From a phage: DNA of 64,000 nucleotides. The notes beneath the pieces are model-generated. The model had not been told where the DNA came from and did not search any database. It was given only the letters and a program-made list of their open reading frames with translations. The position numbers were made by a program, and so were the translations under genes. The stretch lies in the sequence record PZ583739.1, one strand, 5' to 3'. Every line of letters begins with the position of its first letter. Position 1 is the first letter of the stretch. Shown in pieces: positions 32,923 to 48,830 of the stretch.

Positions 32923-33158
32923 CAGTTTCGTGGCTCACGTTTAAAAATTTCATCATGCATTGATTGACAACCAACACAATATATCACACCTTTAATCGCT
33001 TGTCTCCGCGCTTCAGGAATTTTTTCGTCGCAGTCAAAACAGAATTCAGCAGACTCCCTTTCAACTGCAACTTGTGCTCTCGCATGGGTGATAGCGGCTT
33101 GGACAACCGCTTCCATCTCTAACTGTTCAGCACCATCTTTTGCAAATCCAACAGCCAT
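32901..33158 (-). CDS. Hypothetical zinc-ribbon protein, 85 aa
   Basis: CFDCD...CVGC motif pair. Confidence 0.4.
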   Translation of the reverse strand: MAVGFAKDGAEQLEMEAVVQAAITHARAQVAVERESAEFCFDCDEKIPEARRQAIKGVIYCVGCQSMHDEIFKREPRNCWHRSMR

Positions 33159-33340
33159 TATGCTTTCAACCCATTCAGATACTCAACCAATGCTGCTTTA
33201 GAATTCGCTAAATCTCGTTTACACTGCTCTATTCCGGAATATGAATAGCCTTCACAATGTTCTACTGCACTATCATAAGAATCGCGTTCAATAGTAGTAG
33301 CGAGTTTAAGGATTTGTTCAATCTGTTCAGTAGTTAACAT
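33158..33340 (-). CDS. Hypothetical protein, 60 aa
   Basis: Small ORF. Confidence 0.3.
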   Translation of the reverse strand: MLTTEQIEQILKLATTIERDSYDSAVEHCEGYSYSGIEQCKRDLANSKAALVEYLNGLKA

Positions 33341-40647: not shown

Positions 40648-41142
40648 TTACCTTTTGTATGCGTCAAAAGTTCCAGTACGGAAAGTTTCGATAACTCGTT
40701 TTGCCCTATTCGGAGTCTGGACTTTATACCATCTTGAGTCAGCTAGTTCCTTAGCAGCAGCTTCCCATGATTTAGCCTTCAGAAGTCGCATACCCTTAGG
40801 AAAACCAGCTACCCCAGCAACACCCATCTGGAATACCATATTAATGAGTGCACAGCGACGAACTTCATCCAGTACATCATAAACAGGTTTTAAGACAGGA
40901 TGTCTCAAGATTCCAGCTTTAGCTTTTTCGACCGAACGATTAAACAATGTTTCAGCTTCGTGTTGGGTTATGCGACCATTGCAGACGCGACCCATGAGCT
41001 TGTCGAGCTCAGCACGAGCAACATCTTTTGATGGGTTCTTAGTTATCAGTTGCCCGATACCAATGGTCCAATAGCCTTCAGTATCTTTATACAAATCCAA
41101 CTTACAACCTTCATCTATACGTAACATTTCGAATATATTCAT
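40648..41142 (-). CDS. e: Lysozyme (endolysin, T4 gene e)
   Basis: 164 aa; [32 protein letters not shown]...[12 protein letters not shown]...[16 protein letters not shown], near-identical to T4 lysozyme. Confidence 0.98.
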
Positions 41143-41168: not shown

Positions 41169-41630
41169 TTATCCGAAAATTTGAGTCATTACCTTGTACA
41201 TCGATTTGCCCATCACGTACTGCCATTGGCTCGGTTTAATCAGAGCAAATGCATCAAACTCTGGGACCGAACTGCCATCCGGGAAGGTATGATAGGCAGA
41301 GCATTTACTGTGTCTGAATTGCTCATGCTCGACAGGAACCGTATACAAAAACAGGTGAAGGTTTTTGTTATCTGAATAACGGAACTCACCGAGGTCTTTT
41401 AAGAATGCCGGGTCGTATTGGGTAAACCCAGTTTCTTCTTCGGTTTCACGAATAGCCGCTTCAATCGGGGATTCACCAGCTTCCACATGACCCTTAGGGA
41501 TGTCCCATTTGTGTGCTGGCATACCTGGTTTACGAGAACCGGTCACACGACCCATGAATAACTCTTTATCTTCAGTCATGAAAATAATGCCAGCAGATAA
41601 TTCTTTCACCTTGTTTTTCTTACTCATCAT
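41169..41630 (-). CDS. nudE: Nudix hydrolase NudE
   Basis: Nudix box GHVEAGESPIEAAIRETEEETG; start trimmed to ATG at 41630. Confidence 0.9.
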   Translation of the reverse strand: MMSKKNKVKELSAGIIFMTEDKELFMGRVTGSRKPGMPAHKWDIPKGHVEAGESPIEAAIRETEEETGFTQYDPAFLKDLGEFRYSDNKNLHLFLYTVPVEHEQFRHSKCSAYHTFPDGSSVPEFDAFALIKPSQWQYVMGKSMYKVMTQIFG

Positions 41631-41856
41631 CACGTTCCCAAGATTTTTTAAAGATTTCGCCCATAATAATTTCAATACGTGTTTCTGTTGAAGGCGATTC
41701 ACTATCAGAAGTTTGAACTTTATATTCAGAAATAGGGCGGAACATATCTAAGTCAGTTTCTAAATCATCTTTGATTTTCTCTTCTGATGTACCTGTGTCA
41801 TAGGAATACAGATAAGAATCACATGACTCAGATTTAATATAAATCGCAATACTCAT
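41620..41856 (-). CDS. Hypothetical acidic protein, 78 aa
   Basis: Start overlaps upstream stop (AAATGA). Confidence 0.4.
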   Translation of the reverse strand: MSIAIYIKSESCDSYLYSYDTGTSEEKIKDDLETDLDMFRPISEYKVQTSDSESPSTETRIEIIMGEIFKKSWERDDE

Positions 41857-42440
41857 TTACGGCATTCCTCAATAAAAGAGTTCAATGTATTTTTCTTATT
41901 GATATCGTCATATAGCTTTTTAACTTTAGAAATACGAAAAGGTACTTCAATAGCCATAGTCCATAAAAATGATGCAATAAGTCCAACAGCAGCAGAAGAA
42001 AGGCACGCGCCCATTACAGCTACAGGTGCTTCATTTTTACCTGTCAAGAAAAACAACAGGATTGGTAAAAATAAGATTCCAGTCCACGCATAAAACCTGG
42101 AACAAATTAACTTATCAAATTCATCTTTCCAGGTACGAAATCCATATTTCTTGCTATAAGAAATTAATGGGTCGGGTGTCTGTTCTTTGAGTGGTTCTGG
42201 TTGATACCCATTAATGATGTATCCCATTTTATATTCCTTAATTAAAAGCTCTTTAACATGACGATTGCATCGCGACCAATCAACATTTTCCACCTTGATT
42301 CCTTCATCACCATCATCAAGGTTCGCCCAATATTTTTTGGTAATCATAAATTCATCTCTTGATACAATTATACCTGTATTTTCTGCCCGGCGGATGAAGT
42401 TTACATCAACACCCATACAACCGGGTTCATAAAGGGCCAT
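41853..42440 (-). CDS. Membrane protein with soluble N-domain, two TM helices and C-terminal ...FIEECRK tail
   Basis: 195 aa; hydrophobic helices ILFLPILLFFL and VAVMGACLSSAAVGLIASFLW; tail motif shared with 45448-46676 proteins. Confidence 0.45.
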   Translation of the reverse strand: MALYEPGCMGVDVNFIRRAENTGIIVSRDEFMITKKYWANLDDGDEGIKVENVDWSRCNRHVKELLIKEYKMGYIINGYQPEPLKEQTPDPLISYSKKYGFRTWKDEFDKLICSRFYAWTGILFLPILLFFLTGKNEAPVAVMGACLSSAAVGLIASFLWTMAIEVPFRISKVKKLYDDINKKNTLNSFIEECRK

Positions 42441-43126
42441 TACCAGCCCTCCATAGGGAATTCCAGATATACTTGAGCATTAACGCGGATTTCATTTGTA
42501 ATCTTTTTAACACGGTCGGTATTACGAGACACACGACCAAACCAGCGCCAACCGTTACTTACTGCACGAGAACCTGTATGCCATGTCTGCCAATCAAACT
42601 GGAGCAACGTGCGGTCAGGAGCATCCCACTTGGTTAATTCATTGGACTCAATTTTTTCCAGAACTTCTTTATGCCACTGGCGATAGATAAGTTCGCCTTC
42701 AGGAATCTGACTAAATTGGGCAGTTCCGGTCGCAAAATAAGTAGGACACACATCAGCGTTAACAAGACCAAGAATATGTTCAGAATGGTAACGAGGATTA
42801 TCATAATCAGGTTGCCCTGCAGTAATAAAGTGTTGACCAACCGGAATATCCTGGCGCGGTACATCATCATGGTGATAACCTGGGATAGCAGGATACCAAC
42901 CAGGCATTAACATATGTACACGAGAATCGAATACGACATTTTCATTAGTCCAATCAATCGGAAGATTGGCAATAAAACTACGAGTGATTGGGCCGCCTTT
43001 ATCCCAAGCAAAACTCAAATCGCAGTTAAAGAACATTGGTTCATTTTTGATTTGATCGTTTTGAACATCGTGAGCAAAACCACTTACGGCACGAGCTCGG
43101 CTATTAAACACTTTAGAACTATTCAT
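42440..43126 (-). CDS. Hypothetical protein, 228 aa
   Basis: Trp/His-rich ORF; TIR AATGAGGAAAATATT-ATG. Confidence 0.5.
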   Translation of the reverse strand: MNSSKVFNSRARAVSGFAHDVQNDQIKNEPMFFNCDLSFAWDKGGPITRSFIANLPIDWTNENVVFDSRVHMLMPGWYPAIPGYHHDDVPRQDIPVGQHFITAGQPDYDNPRYHSEHILGLVNADVCPTYFATGTAQFSQIPEGELIYRQWHKEVLEKIESNELTKWDAPDRTLLQFDWQTWHTGSRAVSNGWRWFGRVSRNTDRVKKITNEIRVNAQVYLEFPMEGW

Positions 43127-43153
43127 AATATTTTCCTCATTGATTGTGGGACC

Positions 43154-43182
43154 ATTGTGTCATAGTCCCACTTGGATGTACA
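43154..43182 (-). promoter_or_regulatory. T4-type early promoter
   Basis: Minus strand: GTGTACA, 17 nt, CACAAT, then GGTCCC. Confidence 0.4.
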
Positions 43183-43185
43183 CAC

Positions 43186-44145
43186 TTATTTTGCGAAAGG
43201 ACGAATTAAATGTTGGTTAGCTTTAAAACGTTTAACATAGTCTTCGTGCCCCAGGGTGTTGTACATATTAACCACTTCCTGGTAATGTTCCCAGGCATAC
43301 TCACGGAACCATCCAGAAGTAATGGAGGTGCAGACTTTTTCCAGCGCAATATGGAAGCTCACGGATGGAGAGATATTGAACTCATTAGGAACCTGCGAAC
43401 GCTCCAGAGCGAGCACACATGCTTCTTCATAAACCCCTGCCAGTTTAATAACATCAGGGAGTGCTTCAAATTTTTCACGCGAGGTCATGACTTCTGAATC
43501 ATCCTTCATATAGAACTTATATGCAGGCTTATCAGCAAGCGCCACGGCCTCGTGGATGGAGTCATGGTCAAGGGTATAGATTGTATCATTAAAGAAAGTT
43601 TTCTTGCCCACGTCTAGTTTAGGGTGACTGTATGACAGTGTCTCTGCCTGACGCTGCAGCATGATTTTCTGCAGTTCATCATTAAGAACAATACCCTTAT
43701 TGCGAAGGTAATTAATATGACTCATGGTCTTCAGGAAGAATGGATTGTTCTTCAGGTAACGATGAGATAATTTAATTGCCAGACAAATATCAGGAGTTGC
43801 CCAGTAAAAACCTGTAAGACGATCTTTTTTAATATGATTTTCAGCATATTTCAGGAGACGATAACTTGAGGTGAAATCTTCGTCTTGAAGCTCACCAGTA
43901 ATTTCTCGTACGTTGGTCAGGGCACGGACAATATAAGCTTCAAAATAGGTTTCTTTGCCATTGTACATACATTTAAAAGCTTGGACGTTAGGGTTATCCA
44001 CAGGAACATGAGCACCGAACATACGTGCTTTAAAGTGGTTCCAGGAGCCTTGGTCAGCGATAAAGTCCCAATCAGAGTTTTCAATTTTCTGACTTTCAAT
44101 CAGACCAGCGTTATGTAATGCACGAGAACCAATAACTAACATCAT
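43186..44145 (-). CDS. Hypothetical protein, 319 aa, possible nucleotidyltransferase fold
   Basis: N-terminal IGSRALHNAGLIESQKIENSDWDF loosely fits GS...DxD; TIR AATGAGGAAAATATT-ATG. Confidence 0.45.
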   Translation of the reverse strand: MMLVIGSRALHNAGLIESQKIENSDWDFIADQGSWNHFKARMFGAHVPVDNPNVQAFKCMYNGKETYFEAYIVRALTNVREITGELQDEDFTSSYRLLKYAENHIKKDRLTGFYWATPDICLAIKLSHRYLKNNPFFLKTMSHINYLRNKGIVLNDELQKIMLQRQAETLSYSHPKLDVGKKTFFNDTIYTLDHDSIHEAVALADKPAYKFYMKDDSEVMTSREKFEALPDVIKLAGVYEEACVLALERSQVPNEFNISPSVSFHIALEKVCTSITSGWFREYAWEHYQEVVNMYNTLGHEDYVKRFKANQHLIRPFAK

Positions 44146-44159
44146 AATATTTTCCTCAT

Positions 44160-44326
44160 TAGTAAAGACGAGTTACTTCATATTTTCCAAGTGCCGATTT
44201 TTTCGCTTCAATTCGTGAGGCAGCAAGATTGGCGGCCTCTAGTGAAGAAAATTGAACCACTTGAGAAGTATTCTGTCTTACTCCACCTTGCGGGTGAGTG
44301 ACAAAAACAATAAGAACATTATACAT
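44160..44326 (-). CDS. Hypothetical protein, 55 aa
   Basis: Hand translation MYNVLIVFVTHPQGGVRQNTSQVV...; same TIR AATGAGGAAAATATT-ATG; directly downstream of promoter 44355-44383. Confidence 0.3.
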
Positions 44327-44354
44327 AATATTTTCCTCATTAGTTGACGAGATA

Positions 44355-44383
44355 ATGATACTACGTTTCTTTAGGCTTGTACA
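44355..44383 (-). promoter_or_regulatory. T4-type early promoter
   Basis: Minus strand: GTGTACA, 17 nt, TATCAT, then TATCTC. Confidence 0.45.
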
Positions 44384-44429
44384 CTAAATTTCTGCACATA
44401 AGTCCTCCTATCACATCCTTGTGATAATT

Positions 44430-44654
44430 TTAGCAGCTACTCGGGTGCCAGATTTTACCGTCAGGTTGAGCAACAAAGGTGCGACCAGCGTCTTCGCCAT
44501 AGCAAGAGCTGTACAACCAGTCTTCGAGACGAACCTCACCATCATATTCGTCAAGCTCAATACCGAAATCTTGAGCGTTAGCCATATCTTTTACTTTCTT
44601 ATACAATGCAGCCAGTTCAAGTGCTGCTTTTTCTAATTCATTAATATCAGACAT
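44430..44654 (-). CDS. Small protein, 74 aa, C-terminal ...KIWHPSSC (divergent member of the WVSSSxxC family)
   Basis: N-terminal helix plus C-terminal W-x-x-S-S-C tail; first of four tandem paralogues. Confidence 0.45.
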   Translation of the reverse strand: MSDINELEKAALELAALYKKVKDMANAQDFGIELDEYDGEVRLEDWLYSSCYGEDAGRTFVAQPDGKIWHPSSC

Positions 44655-44663
44655 TTTTATTCC

Positions 44664-44861
44664 TTAGCATTCGTAAGAGGAGGACACCCAAGAGGTACCA
44701 CTAATTGTAATACAACCATTATAAAGCGTGATATGTCGTTCTAGGTCACGAACACCATCGATATAGATATCAGCTTCTTCGCGTTCTTCTTTGCAAATCT
44801 GGATAACGTTTTCAATAGCTGCCGCAGCAGTACGGATTGCACAATCTAATTCACGAGACAT
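44664..44861 (-). CDS. Small protein, ~65 aa, C-terminal ...SWVSSSYEC
   Basis: Trimmed to ATG at 44861 with RBS AAGGAA; tandem paralogue. Confidence 0.45.
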   Translation of the reverse strand: MSRELDCAIRTAAAAIENVIQICKEEREEADIYIDGVRDLERHITLYNGCITISGTSWVSSSYEC

Positions 44862-44869
44862 AACATTCC

Positions 44870-45151
44870 TTAACATTCAGAAGAGGAGGACACCCAACCG
44901 CCTTTTTCCAGGTCAGTTGTATAGTCATGAGTATTAACAATAGCCCATTCAGGATGGCCATGTTCTTCCCAATGAGCAAGGTCGGCTTTCAGGGCGCCAG
45001 GAGAATAATAGTCACCGCCCATACCGCGAGCAGGGTATATATTAAAATGAGTCTCATATTTGTTTGCAATTTCCTCGGCACGACGAATAGCTTTATGGAT
45101 GTCATTTACTGCGTTAGCCAGTTCTTTATTTTTACGGTAATCATTCATCAT
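44870..45151 (-). CDS. Small protein, 93 aa, C-terminal ...GGWVSSSSEC
   Basis: Tandem paralogue; helical N-terminus. Confidence 0.45.
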   Translation of the reverse strand: MMNDYRKNKELANAVNDIHKAIRRAEEIANKYETHFNIYPARGMGGDYYSPGALKADLAHWEEHGHPEWAIVNTHDYTTDLEKGGWVSSSSEC

Positions 45152-45160
45152 AGAGTTTCC

Positions 45161-45451
45161 TTAGCACATTGCCGAAGAGGAGACCCAAGCACCAACTGTA
45201 ACGACACCGTTTTCAACTTCGCCGCCGTTGTTTTCAATTTCATCTTTAAACCACTTGGAGCATTCATAACCGACAGGATAATATGTACGGCCTGAACCAT
45301 AATCACCGGTACCGAATTGGATACCGTATTCATCTGCGATTTCTTCGCAGTGTTTTTCAATTTCAGAGGTCTTATTTAGAAGAGAATAGATAGCTTTTTC
45401 TGCAGATTTTTCATCATAATACTTGGGGATAGCAATTTCAATTTTATTCAT
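45161..45451 (-). CDS. Small protein, 96 aa, C-terminal ...GAWVSSSAMC
   Basis: Tandem paralogue. Confidence 0.45.
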   Translation of the reverse strand: MNKIEIAIPKYYDEKSAEKAIYSLLNKTSEIEKHCEEIADEYGIQFGTGDYGSGRTYYPVGYECSKWFKDEIENNGGEVENGVVTVGAWVSSSAMC

Positions 45452-45801
45452 GATTTACATTCCTTAATAAAGGTTTCAAGGTCATTACGTTTTGTTTTGT
45501 CTAGGAACTTATTATACTCAGCCATTGCTGAAGCATATCTCTTCCGACTAGGAGCATTCAAGGCGTTTGTGTGACAGATATCATACACAACAGGGATAAA
45601 ATAAGCCACAACAGCCGGAGCAATTATCATAAAGAAGCCCATATCAATAGGCATGACTCCCTCGATTGCAGCCATAACCGTGGTCATTACCAGACCAACC
45701 AAACCGCCAAGCATGGCGGTGACAATCCCTAATAATAAACTGGCACCAATATCATATTCAGCCAATTGATAAACATGTGATGCAAGACTAGGCCGTTCCA
45801 T
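45448..45801 (-). CDS. Two-TM membrane protein with C-terminal ...FIKECKS tail, 117 aa
   Basis: ATG at 45801 with strong RBS AAGGAGG; hydrophobic helices; tail motif shared with neighbours. Confidence 0.45.
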   Translation of the reverse strand: MERPSLASHVYQLAEYDIGASLLLGIVTAMLGGLVGLVMTTVMAAIEGVMPIDMGFFMIIAPAVVAYFIPVVYDICHTNALNAPSRKRYASAMAEYNKFLDKTKRNDLETFIKECKS

Positions 45802-46147
45802 TACGAACCTCCTTAATAAATTCTTCGGCACATTTAATTTTGTGCTCTTCTTGCAGGGAAACACATTTTTGTTCCCACTCTTTAACTCGCCCACGATATC
45901 CTTTATTCATATGATTTTGATGCCACACGTTTATCAATATCATGCTCAGGACTGTAATAAAAGGTGCTGCAATTATTAGTGACCAGGCGACTCCAACACT
46001 AATGATATTCATATCCCCACAAAGCACCATCATTATAACCCCAACGATGCACATGGACAAAGCTCCAAATGGAGGCATAAGGTCTTTATCAATCTTGTCT
46101 GCGTACACAAATTTTTCTGGTTTACTTGGCAGATATAGCGTTCGCAT
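45788..46147 (-). CDS. Two-TM membrane protein with C-terminal ...EEFIKEVRN tail, 119 aa
   Basis: ATG at 46147 with RBS AAAGGGG; two hydrophobic helices. Confidence 0.45.
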   Translation of the reverse strand: MRTLYLPSKPEKFVYADKIDKDLMPPFGALSMCIVGVIMMVLCGDMNIISVGVAWSLIIAAPFITVLSMILINVWHQNHMNKGYRGRVKEWEQKCVSLQEEHKIKCAEEFIKEVRNGTA

Positions 46148-46676
46148 TTTGAACCCCTTTAGCATATTCACGACATTCAGCAATAAAACGATTAAGCTTA
46201 CGTTTCCGTTTACGACTCTCTAATGTGTACTCAGCCGCCAAATCAAGAAGCTCATCTTTATCATAATTTTTAATATCAGTATAAGTTGGTCGGCGGTCAA
46301 CCATTCCAAAGTGGTCACCATTTTCCAACATCAAATAACACACCAAATGGTCACCATCGTCCGCATTAATAAGTTGCCTATAATCATCTGGGTCATTTAA
46401 CGCATATACTGAATAACGTAGTCCACCGAATTCCACTCGTTGAATACCCAGATTTACATCAATAATTTCCAAGGCATCTGCGAAAGAAAGGTCTTCAGCT
46501 AAAGCAAAAATAAAAGGCAATTTGGTAGTATCGCCGCGACTTGTCGTTCTTCTTAAGAAATCATTGGAATAACCCAGGTCTTGGCGAATTCTGTAAAGAA
46601 CCGTGTTAGTTTCAGTGGCAAGACCACTACCACTAAACCAGTCTACATTTGATATAAGGTCAGTATATAAGCTCAT
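46122..46676 (-). CDS. Hypothetical soluble protein, 184 aa, C-terminal region ...NRFIAECREY...
   Basis: ATG at 46676 with RBS GGGAGAGGAG; preceded by hairpin 46697-46713. Confidence 0.45.
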   Translation of the reverse strand: MSLYTDLISNVDWFSGSGLATETNTVLYRIRQDLGYSNDFLRRTTSRGDTTKLPFIFALAEDLSFADALEIIDVNLGIQRVEFGGLRYSVYALNDPDDYRQLINADDGDHLVCYLMLENGDHFGMVDRRPTYTDIKNYDKDELLDLAAEYTLESRKRKRKLNRFIAECREYAKGVQNANAISAK

Positions 46677-46719
46677 AATATTCTCCTCTCCCAATTAGGG
46701 GGCAAAGCCCCCTTTTATC

Positions 46720-47313
46720 TTACTTAAGTGAATTGATGTATTCTTCAATGTCAGCGGACGTGGTATCCACACCAACCTGTGGGCCTTTGAAGGTTTCAAC
46801 ACGCATCAGGGTGTCTTCAATATCAATCTTAGTCAATGCAGCGATTTCAACAACATCATCTGCGGTTGCAATACCCAGTGCAGACACCTTACGGGTTTCG
46901 CGGATGTATTCCAGTTTAACAGCTAGTTCCTGACGAGAGTCATCCAGCTCTTTAACTTTCAATTTAATTTCATTACGCATTTCAACATAATCATCTGCCT
47001 TCTTACGAAGTTGTTTAGCAGTGCGACGATACAGGAGACCCAGTTTAGCATGGACCTGGACATCAGCACCATCAGCAATCAGTTTACGAATTTCACGCTC
47101 TTTTGAAGCGGCGAGCTGGTCTTTTTCATTCGCTAACTCGCGGATGCGTTTTTCTTCATTAACAGACTTAACGTGGGCAGTCTGGAGCTCAGTAATCTTA
47201 TCAATCAGGGTAGAAGCAGCTTTAGTATACTGGTCTTCAATAGACAGGTTTTGCGCCATTGCAGTACCCAGTTTGGAGCGGATGAATTCAACAATTTTCT
47301 TTAAAGTATTCAT
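46720..47313 (-). CDS. Hypothetical coiled-coil protein, 197 aa
   Basis: Long charged heptad-like helical sequence; no motif recognised. Confidence 0.45.
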
Positions 47314-47732: not shown

Positions 47733-47761
47733 ATTATGCCTTAAAGCAGGGGGCTTGTATA
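47733..47761 (-). promoter_or_regulatory. T4-type early promoter cassette (PeSL-like)
   Basis: Minus strand: GTATACA, 17 nt, CATAAT, then GATTCCATACTGAGTTACCAAATAAA; -35 sits inside the GGGGGcuuguauaCCCCC hairpin. Confidence 0.5.
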
Positions 47762-47773
47762 CCCCCTTTTTAA

Positions 47774-48205
47774 TTAAATTTCAAATTCTTTTCGGAAGTT
47801 GGAAGCATAAGACTGAACTGATGCTTTGTTGAATCCAAACTCACGCACAATCATATCAATAACAGCTCTGCGAGCAGCACCATTAGACATATTAACAGTT
47901 TTGAACATATCATAGCATAAATCTTTGTTGCTCATACCGGAGCGTTTAGGTGCTTTTGGTTCAGCTTTAGGAGTAGGTTTAACTTCTGGTTTAACCTGTC
48001 CATCATTCAGACCTTTAAAAATTTTACCTGCCAGAGTTGCCAGTTTAGCAGCTTCGCCACGAGTGATACCAAATACTGCCGGGTTAAATGAAATACCTTC
48101 AGCTGTCAGACGTTTGAAGAACATACGTGCTGCGGATTGTGCTTCAGCTTCAGAAGAGTTGTTTAATGCCAGTTTAACATACTTAACCAGTTTTGAAGTT
48201 TTCAT
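47774..48205 (-). CDS. Hypothetical protein, 143 aa, paralogue of 48289-48714
   Basis: Trimmed to ATG at 48205 (MKTSKLVKY...); C-terminal ...AARRAVIDMIV...VQSYASNFRKEFEI. Confidence 0.45.
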   Translation of the reverse strand: MKTSKLVKYVKLALNNSSEAEAQSAARMFFKRLTAEGISFNPAVFGITRGEAAKLATLAGKIFKGLNDGQVKPEVKPTPKAEPKAPKRSGMSNKDLCYDMFKTVNMSNGAARRAVIDMIVREFGFNKASVQSYASNFRKEFEI

Positions 48206-48247
48206 TTTATTATCCCGTTTGTTTATTTGGTAACTCAGTATGGGATA

Positions 48248-48276
48248 ATTATACACTATCCCACCTGGAAGTAAAA
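48248..48276 (-). promoter_or_regulatory. T4-type early promoter cassette (PeSL-like)
   Basis: Minus strand: GTTTTAC, 17 nt, TATAAT, then TATCCCATACTGAGTTACCAAATAAA. Confidence 0.5.
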
Positions 48277-48288
48277 CACTTTTCTCAA

Positions 48289-48714
48289 TTATTTTTGAGC
48301 TTTGCGGAAGTTGGAAGCATATGACTGAACAACAGTCTTTTTGATATCATGGGTGGTAACCAGAACATCAATCAGAGCACGACGAGCTGCATTATCATTC
48401 ATATCAATTTCTGCAAATGCCTGGAAGCAAATGTCACGAGCGTTACCAGATTTGGACTGGATTTTTTCTTCTTTAACTTCTTCAATTGGGAATTCAATCA
48501 TTTCAGCTTGGATTAATTCAATAATAGATTCTTTTGACTGTTTGGTGTTTACCTTCAGTTCAGAATTAAGGGACTTGGCGATGGCAACAATCTGGGTTGA
48601 AGTCAGATGGATAAGTGCATCTTCACGAATGCAGATTTCACATACTTCGTCGGCAACCATTTTGTTAGTGATGCGGGTAACAGAGAATGCAGAGGTCAGG
48701 GTCAGAAAGTTCAT
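48289..48714 (-). CDS. Hypothetical protein, 141 aa, paralogue of 47774-48205
   Basis: Trimmed to ATG at 48714 (MNFLTLTSAF...); C-terminal ...AARRALIDVLV...VQSYASNFRKAQK. Confidence 0.45.
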   Translation of the reverse strand: MNFLTLTSAFSVTRITNKMVADEVCEICIREDALIHLTSTQIVAIAKSLNSELKVNTKQSKESIIELIQAEMIEFPIEEVKEEKIQSKSGNARDICFQAFAEIDMNDNAARRALIDVLVTTHDIKKTVVQSYASNFRKAQK

Positions 48715-48765
48715 TTTATTTCTCCAAAGTTTTGTTTGATTCAGTGTGTAACTCAATATGGAATC

Positions 48766-48794
48766 ATTATGCACCCGGTCAATTCGGATGTACA
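48766..48794 (-). promoter_or_regulatory. T4-type early promoter cassette (PeSL-like)
   Basis: Minus strand: GTGTACA, 17 nt, CATAAT, then GATTCCATATTGAGTTACACACTG. Confidence 0.5.
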
Positions 48795-48830
48795 CTACTT
48801 TTTGAAGAAAATTTCAAATTTATTCAGGGT

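Follow-up and report, generated by a model that had tools for sequence, protein, structure and literature searches.

We analysed a 64,000-nucleotide stretch of phage DNA (sequence record PZ583739.1; referred to as the window throughout), focusing on four minus-strand genes, here called A, B, C and D, which appear to be the counterparts of T4 e.2, e.3, e.4 and e.5. The proteins encoded by these genes share a C-terminal module of about 10 residues. The DNA of this module lies directly before the start of the next gene and usually contains the Shine-Dalgarno (SD) sequence of that gene, so the same 18 to 25 nt would encode a peptide and provide a ribosome-binding site (RBS). We propose that this dual peptide and RBS module takes part in recombination between gene junctions and that the tail may serve as an assembly or docking surface, a combined reading which we lean towards while leaving considerable room for doubt. 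As far as could be found, the shared dual-coded tail has apparently not been described as a feature.

Tails and junctions of the four genes

All four open reading frames (ORFs) are present on the minus strand with ATG starts, as reported in a first-pass annotation of this DNA: A at 41853-42440, encoding 195 amino acids (aa), B at 45448-45801 (117 aa), C at 45788-46147 (119 aa) and D at 46122-46676 (184 aa, soluble). The same annotation had proposed that their tails are related, which was confirmed by motif scans and chance controls. The pattern FI.E[CV] occurred five times in the six-frame translation of the window, compared with 1.27 +/- 1.1 expected from 200 first-order Markov resamples, 0.5% of which reached five occurrences. 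Within the last 22 residues it was found in 4 of 130 minus-strand ORFs, while within-ORF residue shuffles gave an expectation of 0.034 (maximum 2 in 500). Protein A ends in ...NSFIEECRK and protein B in ...ETFIKECKS, each directly before the stop codon, and in these two cases the motif is the literal end of the protein, as had been stated. The statement did not hold for C (...EEFIKEVRNGTA), where four residues are found beyond the closing arginine, and for D (...NRFIAECREYAKGVQNANAISAK), where 15 residues follow (...FIAECREYAKGVQNANAISAK). The additional D residues come from the stretch in which D and C overlap.

The motifs were located on the minus strand at 41859-41876 for A (F-I-E-E-C-R, TTT ATT GAG GAA TGC CGT), 45454-45471 for B (F-I-K-E-C-K, TTT ATT AAG GAA TGT AAA), 45803-45820 for C (F-I-K-E-V-R, TTT ATT AAG GAG GTT CGT) and 46170-46187 for D (F-I-A-E-C-R, TTT ATT GCT GAA TGT CGT). 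For three of the genes (A, B and C) we could verify the suggestion that the I-(K/E)-E codons harbour the SD of the following gene, 5 to 8 nt before the downstream ATG. GAGGA of a 78-aa gene (41620-41856) is positioned inside the A motif at 41866-41870, AAGGA of the gene at 45161-45451 inside the B motif at 45461-45465 and AAGGAGGT of gene B inside the C motif at 45807-45814, the latter with a duplex energy of -12.5 kcal/mol, all on the minus strand. The D motif is without an SD and ends 22 nt before the annotated C start and 15 codons before the D stop; the SD of gene C (AAAGGGG, 46154-46160, minus strand, -7.3 kcal/mol) is found inside D, downstream of the motif. Anti-SD duplex energies at the junctions ranged from -6.1 to -12.5 kcal/mol. 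Stop and start overlap as ATGA both between B and the next gene and between A and the 78-aa gene. Overlaps amount to 1-4 nt for A and B, 14 nt for C into B and 26 nt for D into C. The overlapping pairs show the anatomy of coupled genes, with stop/start overlap or near-abutment and an SD within the upstream ORF. No RNA structure was predicted at the four window junctions and an explanation of the junctions by RNA structure was rejected based on these folds (z -0.5 to +1.6), while promoter-like sites were not above chance (23 compared with 21.4 expected).

Gene C carries two in-frame ATGs six codons apart (MLKGFK-MRTLYL.., window 46145-46167, minus strand). The upstream ATG (46165) is at the start position of T4 e.4 and is without an SD whereas the downstream ATG is preceded by AAAGGGG. 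A match to a relaxed form of the tail pattern at 33158-33340 was set aside as a chance match in an unrelated family (PHROG 653).

To follow the motif across phages, the region was read in Tequatrovirus T4, PhiZZ30, pSe_SNUABM_01 and Manna, Mosigvirus O157tp3, ST0 and UGJNEcP1, Dhakavirus QL01 and C6, Jiaodavirus KP185 and K65, Mosugukvirus PM2, several viral metagenome contigs (UViGs) and one other metagenome contig. Diversity was taken from GenBank phage records because scans of viral contigs gave few loci (3 and 7 only). The tail follows the pattern hydrophobic-x-x-[F/W]-[I/V]-x-[E/D]-C-[R/K]-[K/R], about 10 residues long, and was present in six genera (Gaprivervirus, Dhakavirus, Mosigvirus, Tequatrovirus, Jiaodavirus and Mosugukvirus) and a metagenome contig. 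Its bearers are at least eight unrelated or barely related small proteins, membrane as well as soluble. In the genomes examined, e.5, e.4, e.3 and intact e.2 carry the tail in all cases. Examples are T4 e.5 (..EKFVKECREYVKAITIPSK, FVKECREY..), T4 e.4 (..MKFVKESRCKSQS, FVKESRC..), T4 e.3 (..KEFVIDCRKIK), PhiZZ30 e.2 (..NNFITECRKLK) and the e.5-like (..DFVESCRKSV..) and e.2-like (..DFIKNCRR) proteins of PM2. Further bearers with two transmembrane (TM) segments are a 101-aa protein of Mosigvirus (..ENFIKECRGK), two extra proteins of Jiaodavirus (..AWIRSCRK and ..SWIKEMK) and two extra proteins of PM2 (..FFIDDCRRNKNA and ..QFIESARKK). The tail is also found on soluble proteins of 102 aa in KP185 (..LELFIAKCRAK) and 55 aa in PM2 (..MFINQCRRK). 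An exhaustive profile search of 1.84 billion representatives yielded only 14 relatives, all of them small proteins of the tail-bearing type, with the full-length ones ending in tails such as EEFIKQVRK and EMFVKQLKNRIKR; neither bacterial nor distant relatives were among them. The tail-bearing family appears to be tiny and confined to T-even-like phages.

A 1-nt deletion within an A-run divides the e.2 gene of T4 into two ORFs (L006 4222-4709 compared with L010 5734-6222). The run is A5 in T4 and A6 in PhiZZ30 and pSe_SNUABM_01. The annotated 102-aa T4 e.2 is therefore a truncated form, and the 3' part (..NNFITECRKLK) is intact directly before nudE.

Codon use within the motif

We compiled codon counts for 46 distinct 36-nt instances of the motif. 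Position 1 is F in 43 instances (TTT 38, TTC 5) and W in 3 (TGG 3), and position 2 is I in 33 (ATT 26, ATC 4, ATA 3) and V in 13 (GTT 7, GTG 6). Position 3 varies freely (K 22, E 6, T 5, A 3, S 3, I 2, R 2 as well as D, M and N), position 4 is mostly E or D, and position 5 is C in 36 instances (TGC 19, TGT 17), with V, M, A, I or S in the remainder. Position 6 is R in 42 instances (AGG 13, AGA 12, CGT 10, CGC 5, CGA 2) and K in 4, and a hydrophobic residue is present at position -3 in 37/46. Between close orthologues, differences within the motif, as read off the instance list, are synonymous save at position 3. This turnover of synonymous codons at conserved residues argues for selection on the peptide at the core of the motif. 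The similarity extends well beyond an RBS hexamer, as F, I/V, C, R and the hydrophobic residue at -3 are all conserved as amino acids. Further, e.5 of Gaprivervirus/Dhakavirus, Jiaodavirus and Mosugukvirus retains the motif at a site outside the RBS, as does the KP185 102-aa protein, where it is followed by a 28-nt spacer with its own SD (TAGGAGGT).

The position of the motif is tied to the following gene. With one or two exceptions, the distance from the end of the motif to the next ATG is 0-22 nt. The e.5 genes have their own stop 5-15 codons past the motif, yet the motif is still just upstream of the e.4 start. The SD itself is found at different sites, namely in codons 3-4, as AGG-AAA in the C-R-K codons (TGC AGG AAA) or downstream of the motif. 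It occupies codons 3-4 in 12 motif types (AAGGAA, GAGGAA, AAGGAG, AAAGAGG, AGGAGC), while in 12 other types an AGG arginine codon, usually with AAA next to it, creates the SD; in the remaining types it is found downstream of the motif. AGG was used for arginine in 0/12 types with a codon 3-4 SD compared with 12/24 types without (Fisher p=0.0025, which is indicative only as the instances are related). The SD thus appears to float inside a fixed peptide, with K/E at position 3 and AGG at position 6 probably shaped by the RBS. The first-pass annotation had suggested that part of the apparent protein motif may be a conserved junction cassette. This seems correct for position 3, the choice of arginine codon, the anchoring to the downstream start and the recombination described below; the core, in contrast, is likely a selected peptide.

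Protein architecture, recombination and alternative explanations

Hydropathy analysis confirmed the architectures described in the first-pass annotation. Protein A consists of a soluble part of about 110 aa followed by TM segments at 113-133 and 140-164, B and C are separate proteins with two TM segments each and D is soluble with none. The cytoplasmic N-domain of A shows the pattern W..DDGDEGI..VDW..C, which is followed by the TM hairpin. In an AlphaFold2 model of A, helices span residues 105-133 and 138-194 with a predicted local distance difference test (pLDDT) score of 72-93 for the hairpin and 66 over the last residues. The second TM segment (TM2) forms part of a single, continuous helix of about 57 residues, which carries the motif at its tip. 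D has a long predicted C-terminal helix bearing the motif, B combines an acidic loop on the periplasmic side with a basic C-terminal helix in the cytoplasm, and C likewise has a basic cytoplasmic C-terminal helix and is predicted to have both termini in the cytoplasm (N-in/C-in). Only 0-1 K+R residues are found in the loops between the TM segments compared with 8-9 in the C-terminal segments. According to the positive-inside rule, the proteins are therefore predicted to be N-in/C-in with cytoplasmic tails. The tails of the membrane proteins would then share a compartment with soluble e.5. Helical-wheel projection places L(-3), F, I and C together in a 100-degree arc that is bordered by E and R/K. 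With the A model as query, Foldseek retrieved e.2/e.3 relatives alone from BFVD and gave no match in the PDB (best E=0.8).

The arrangement of these genes had been described as fused (A) versus split (D followed by C and B). As a statement about homology this could not be upheld, since comparison of the e.2 N-domain with e.5 gave hhalign probabilities of 1.2% and 0.2%; an origin of e.2 by fusion of an e.5-like domain to a two-TM unit was rejected on the same values. By hhalign, e.2 and e.5 share the tail only and A aligns with B, C and D over the last 10-26 residues only. The likeness is probably an analogy of architecture and not a fission or fusion of homologous parts. e.3 and e.4, on the other hand, were matched with a probability of 90% over 107 columns, and an N-terminal M-x-K-P-x-L motif is common to B, C and their T4 counterparts. 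B and C are likely full-length paralogues.

The tail-junctions form islands of conservation between rapidly diverging gene bodies. When the window is compared with the four more distant genera, the bodies of e.5, e.4, e.3 and e.2 show 19-34% identity, while e.6 (65-75%), nudE (58-82%) and lysozyme (67-70%) are much more conserved. Identity of the four bodies to Dhakavirus QL01 is 45-67%. At the nucleotide level, window and QL01 are 40-55% identical in the TM cores of B and A and 93-98% identical at the tail-junctions, from where high identity runs on into the downstream gene. Manna and UViG_2974787500 are without e.2, and their e.3 tail continues into the right half of the e.2/nudE junction, with the crossover inside the shared TGCAGGAAA(A)TTAAA(A)TG. 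C6 and QL01 are without e.4, and here the e.5/e.4 junction is joined at the ATG to the e.3 body. The e.5/e.4 and e.4/e.3 junctions of T4 are almost identical to each other (TTTGTTAAGGAAT..ATG.(A)AAGCC). Whole genes appear to have been lost by recombination between junctions, which behave as a cassette. An offset tandem duplication of a unit starting inside the tail would explain how soluble e.5 came to have the tail of its membrane neighbours.

The TM cores of e.2 and e.3 (window 41900-42200 and 45540-45750) are 40-55% identical in nucleotides to QL01 (L007) between flanks of 93-100%, and the e.2 core of the QL01 type is nearer to the T4 type than to that of the window. This indicates that at least two 'alleles' of the membrane part circulate between conserved ends.

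Based on these observations we propose the following mechanism. The module would sit at the tip of a long cytoplasmic alpha-helix, which is the continuation of TM2 in the membrane proteins and the end of the soluble protein in case of e.5. Given the stop-to-start overlap anatomy and what is generally known about coupling, the genes from e.5 through e.3 into the next gene are probably translated in a coupled, near-equimolar fashion. The L/F/I/C patch of the tail may represent a common assembly or docking surface, through which the co-produced proteins would bundle their cytoplasmic helices or bind one shared partner, resulting in an accessory inner-membrane complex with fast-evolving membrane-embedded parts. 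Because the junctions repeat along the array, recombination would add or remove whole genes in frame and thereby lead to tandem paralogues and a soluble protein with the same tail. A suggestive candidate for the shared partner is e.6 (46720-47313, minus strand; PHROG 1203, E=2e-84), which heads the block in every genome examined, is its most conserved member and ends in IEEYINSLK directly before the stop. The relaxed tail pattern was found near the C-terminus of 6/233 window ORFs, e.6 included, and e.6 looks all-helical. In a bolder version, the tail would be a portable assembly tag plus RBS, with an incoming gene gaining both translational coupling and a docking peptide. We consider this version unlikely. 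If it were true, T-even phages would swap fast-evolving membrane and soluble subunits in one inner-membrane complex, a plug-and-play module kept together by a dual-coding sequence of about 10-18 nt with e.6 as candidate hub.

Several points weigh against the proposed mechanism. The assembly or docking role is inferred, and the hydrophobic moment of the tail is not significantly above that of shuffled sequences. Nucleic-acid constraints from a downstream start, which in all but one or two cases is at most 22 nt away, could inflate the apparent conservation of the motif. The e.4 family often has V, I, S or M in place of cysteine, which is thus not universally required. The N-domain of A was modeled with low confidence (AlphaFold2, pLDDT <50 over most of the N-terminal 80 residues), and the model of D, built from an alignment of sequences that are at least 70% identical, was unusable (pLDDT 39). 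In T4, e.2 is frameshifted and knockdowns of e.2-e.6 were without fitness effect in the laboratory (PMC11879866), so the module is dispensable there.

Two of the alternatives ascribe the tail to its DNA. The junctions could be pure RBS and coupling signals (AU-rich stretch, SD, spacer and stop/start overlap) with the peptide being functionless. The link of the motif to the downstream ATG (0-22 nt) instead of its own stop would fit this, as would the tracking of the SD by K/E at position 3 and AGG at position 6. However, cysteine and arginine use many synonymous codons, F is replaced by W (TTT to TGG) and the exchange of I for V alters first and third bases. Further, the SD lies wholly outside the motif in four junction types, the KP185 102-aa protein keeps its tail before a spacer with a separate SD, and the junctions are free of predicted RNA structure. 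The codon table largely refutes this explanation, which we regard as highly improbable. The tail could also be a relic of tandem duplication, copied together with the junction and held in place by overlap constraints without a specific function of the peptide. That e.3 and e.4 are full-length paralogues with the same N-terminal M-x-K-P-x-L motif, that the two T4 junctions share TTTGTTAAGGAAT...ATG.(A)AAGCC, that units are lost at junctions and that an offset duplication would place the tail of the upstream gene on a new copy all speak for duplication. What it leaves unexplained is the conservation of amino acids despite nucleotide turnover across six genera whose protein bodies are about 20% identical, and the presence of tails outside the array (Mosigvirus 101-aa, KP185 102-aa and PM2 55-aa proteins). 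We consider it unlikely, though it deserves some weight.

Other alternatives ascribe a different role to the proteins or to the cysteine. In T4, small membrane proteins of this region include exclusion and lysis-inhibition functions according to the first-pass annotation, and the proteins could be holin/antiholin-like or superinfection-exclusion (Imm-like) effectors with the charged tail as a regulatory cytoplasmic C-terminus. Architecture is the only protein-level feature pointing this way (117-195 aa, two TM segments, N-in/C-in, highly charged C-terminus), together with a location few genes from lysozyme e and one depositor's label of 'holin' for an e.2 homologue. In T4, the holin, antiholin and exclusion functions are encoded by different genes (t, rI, imm, sp). 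Searches of Pfam, NCBIfam and the PDB matched the proteins to no holin, Imm or other family, depositor labels clash (holin, MotA-ExbB, VirB3), the same tail on soluble proteins would be left unexplained, and the T4 e.2-e.6 knockdowns mentioned above argue against such roles (PMC11879866). We therefore find no support for the suggested exclusion or lysis-inhibition functions and assign this explanation a low probability. Just as improbable, in our estimate, is that cysteine is the key feature, in joint metal binding or a covalent link across chains, or that the tail is a processing or degradation signal. Cysteine is the most common residue at position 5 (36/46), T4 and Mosigvirus e.4, which are without it there, have R-C two residues later, and the e.4 family contains another invariant cytoplasmic cysteine (C95). 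I-x-E also resembles the site of the T4 prohead protease. Against this, V, I, M, A and S are tolerated at position 5, as in a hydrophobic core, each tail has one cysteine and no CxxC, position 4 is sometimes non-acidic (S, N, Q, Y), and membrane proteins are unlikely substrates of a capsid-internal protease. The e.4 lineage replaces cysteine with V, I, M, A or S, which seems to fit a packing position better than a catalytic residue or metal ligand.

T-even phages have many conserved accessory regions without an assigned function, the e.2-e.6 block among them, and a shared and selected C-terminal peptide provides a first concrete handle on the products of this block. With one predicted compartment, probable coupled production and a common surface, the block can now be tested as a complex using point mutants of the tail. 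The junctions also offer a natural example of two codes, peptide and RBS, in one sequence, with AGG for arginine only where the K-E codons supply no SD, and they illustrate how genes can be gained and lost precisely through repeats in coding junctions.

Setting of the block and comparison with known systems

The window represents a Gaprivervirus, a T-even phage. The region shows 95.8% identity to Escherichia phage vB_EcoM_VR20, and it is also collinear with SP18 and further phages of Gaprivervirus (JS98-like T-even). In order of transcription, the minus strand encodes e.6 at the head of the module, D, C, B, a run of small genes beginning with 45161-45451 directly downstream of B, a DUF7275/DUF7277 protein (43186-44145) and a 228-aa protein (42440-43126), followed by A, the 78-aa gene between A and nudE, nudE (41169-41627) and lysozyme e (40648-41142).

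Gene identities were assigned from PHROG, Pfam and tblastn matches together with synteny. A matched PHROG 2203 (E=5e-66, residues 32-195) and is positioned just upstream of nudE and e, as expected for a member of the e.2 family; 29/29 of its homologues carry the precomputed Pfam label PF26896. PF26896 (e.2) and PF26873 (e.4) are known here as precomputed Pfam labels only. Invariant positions in the alignment of the A family are W38, DD.D.GI, DW..C, IE.P.R and F.I.ECRK. B matched PHROG 2330 over its full length (E=1.3e-45), is located directly downstream of e.4 as expected for e.3, and also gave cross-matches to the e.2 family. C matched PHROG 2604 (E=3.5e-45) and T4 e.4 (33% identity, E=9e-9, tblastn), both in agreement with membership of the e.4 family, and overlaps the start of B in the order e.4 to e.3. 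Invariant positions in the e.4 family are LY.P..P, R..W...C and F.KE.R. D matched PHROG 8788 (E=4e-111) and, weakly, PHROG 2607, the family of T4 e.5 (E=0.0066). When the D family was aligned with the T4-type e.5 family (hhalign), the probability was 94% over 107 columns and dropped to 33% once the tail was removed, the match being collinear over 100 columns. Orthology of D as a divergent counterpart of T4 e.5 is supported by its synteny between e.6 and e.4 and the common CREY.K tail.

Library scans of A-D and e.6 found no Pfam or NCBIfam family at E<=0.1. Sequence searches against solved structures returned nothing for e.6 (best E=0.44), and nothing was found with the e.5 profile. The idea that e.6 is PspA-like, which came from reading its sequence, was dropped as neither Pfam nor the PDB supported it. 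In the literature, we found no functional study of e.2-e.6; mentions are confined to the CRISPRi-ART tables, which list T4 e.2-e.8 as unknown with knockdowns showing no fitness defect (PMC11879866, supplementary files 8 and 15). Here, T4 e.2-e.4 knockdowns were scored 'Not Fit', meaning no fitness defect, and the T4 counterparts bear the same PHROG numbers (T4 e.3 = phrog_2330) as the window genes. The depositor labels of the e.2, e.3, e.4 and e.5 homologues in EAWsc9 (L026, 1054-6637), namely 'holin', 'MotA-ExbB domain-containing protein', 'VirB3' and 'ubiquitinyl hydrolase 1', appear mutually inconsistent, were not reproduced by Pfam/NCBIfam and should not be propagated.

Additional repeated elements were observed around the block. 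Downstream of B, four tandem small soluble paralogues (PHROG 899, 4882) are encoded on the minus strand at 45161-45451, 44870-45151, 44664-44876 and 44430-44654. They have a second conserved tail, W-[V/I/H]-[S/P]-S-S-x-x-C, with cysteine as the last residue. The same W..C ending was found in Mosigvirus (WVSSSALC-stop), Pectobacterium phage PM2 and a metagenome contig (WISSSEMC-stop). Genes with this tail are always located just downstream of e.3/e.4 and are not present in T4. A second duplicated pair in the accessory region is formed by tandem paralogues at 47774-48256 and 48289-48795 (minus strand), which have a conserved C-terminal region (..NGAARRAVIDMIV...VQSYASNFRKEFEI and ..NDNAARRALIDVLV...VQSYASNFRKAQK). 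Two similar GC-rich intergenic hairpins, AGGGGGC...GCCCCCT, are found at 46697-46713 and 47748-47767, one to either side of the e.6 gene and a 101-aa gene. In both, T-runs follow on the plus (antisense) strand, making the hairpins terminator-like.

The genes of the block are ordinary members of known uncharacterised T-even families and do not constitute a new class of system. T4 e.2-e.5 (PHROG 2203/35263, 2330, 2604, 2607/8788; PF26896, PF26873) are direct homologues with the same TM architecture and the same tail, and the gene order e.6-e.5-e.4-e.3 ... e.2-nudE-e is shared. Compared with T4, the window has a strongly diverged e.5 (19% identity), about 3 kb of extra genes between e.3 and e.2, and an e.2 with a 31-aa N-terminal extension and a different type of TM region, while the e.2 gene of T4 carries a frameshift. 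Class II holins/pinholins and T4 Imm are similar in size and also have two TM segments, N-in/C-in topology and a charged cytoplasmic C-terminus, but these features are generic and not diagnostic. In contrast to these proteins, the window proteins form a paralogue array with a soluble tail-bearing partner and showed no sequence or fold match; searches of Pfam and NCBIfam (E<=0.1), the PDB and BFVD folds did not place them in any holin family. Nor has a phenotype in lysis or exclusion been recorded for them.

The junctions can further be compared with the PeSL elements of T4-type phages, which are intergenic promoter and stem-loop units acting as mobile regulatory cassettes (PMC2839356, PMC4122927). 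Similar to PeSLs, short boundary repeats in a hyperplastic region would act as recombination sites, with whole genes being gained or lost, and a boundary repeat is indeed present at the deletion end points. Unlike PeSLs, the window junctions are coding and have neither an intergenic promoter signal above chance nor a stem-loop, and the repeat is about 10-18 nt long. In layout, the junctions also resemble translationally coupled overlapping genes with an SD in the upstream ORF (ATGA/TAATG), which are common in T4 and in operons such as trp. As in such pairs, stop and start overlap in the window and the SD is positioned 5-8 nt upstream, inside the preceding ORF. However, in contrast to ordinary coupled pairs, the SD codons belong to a peptide motif common to several different proteins, and the SD migrates among codons while the peptide stays fixed.

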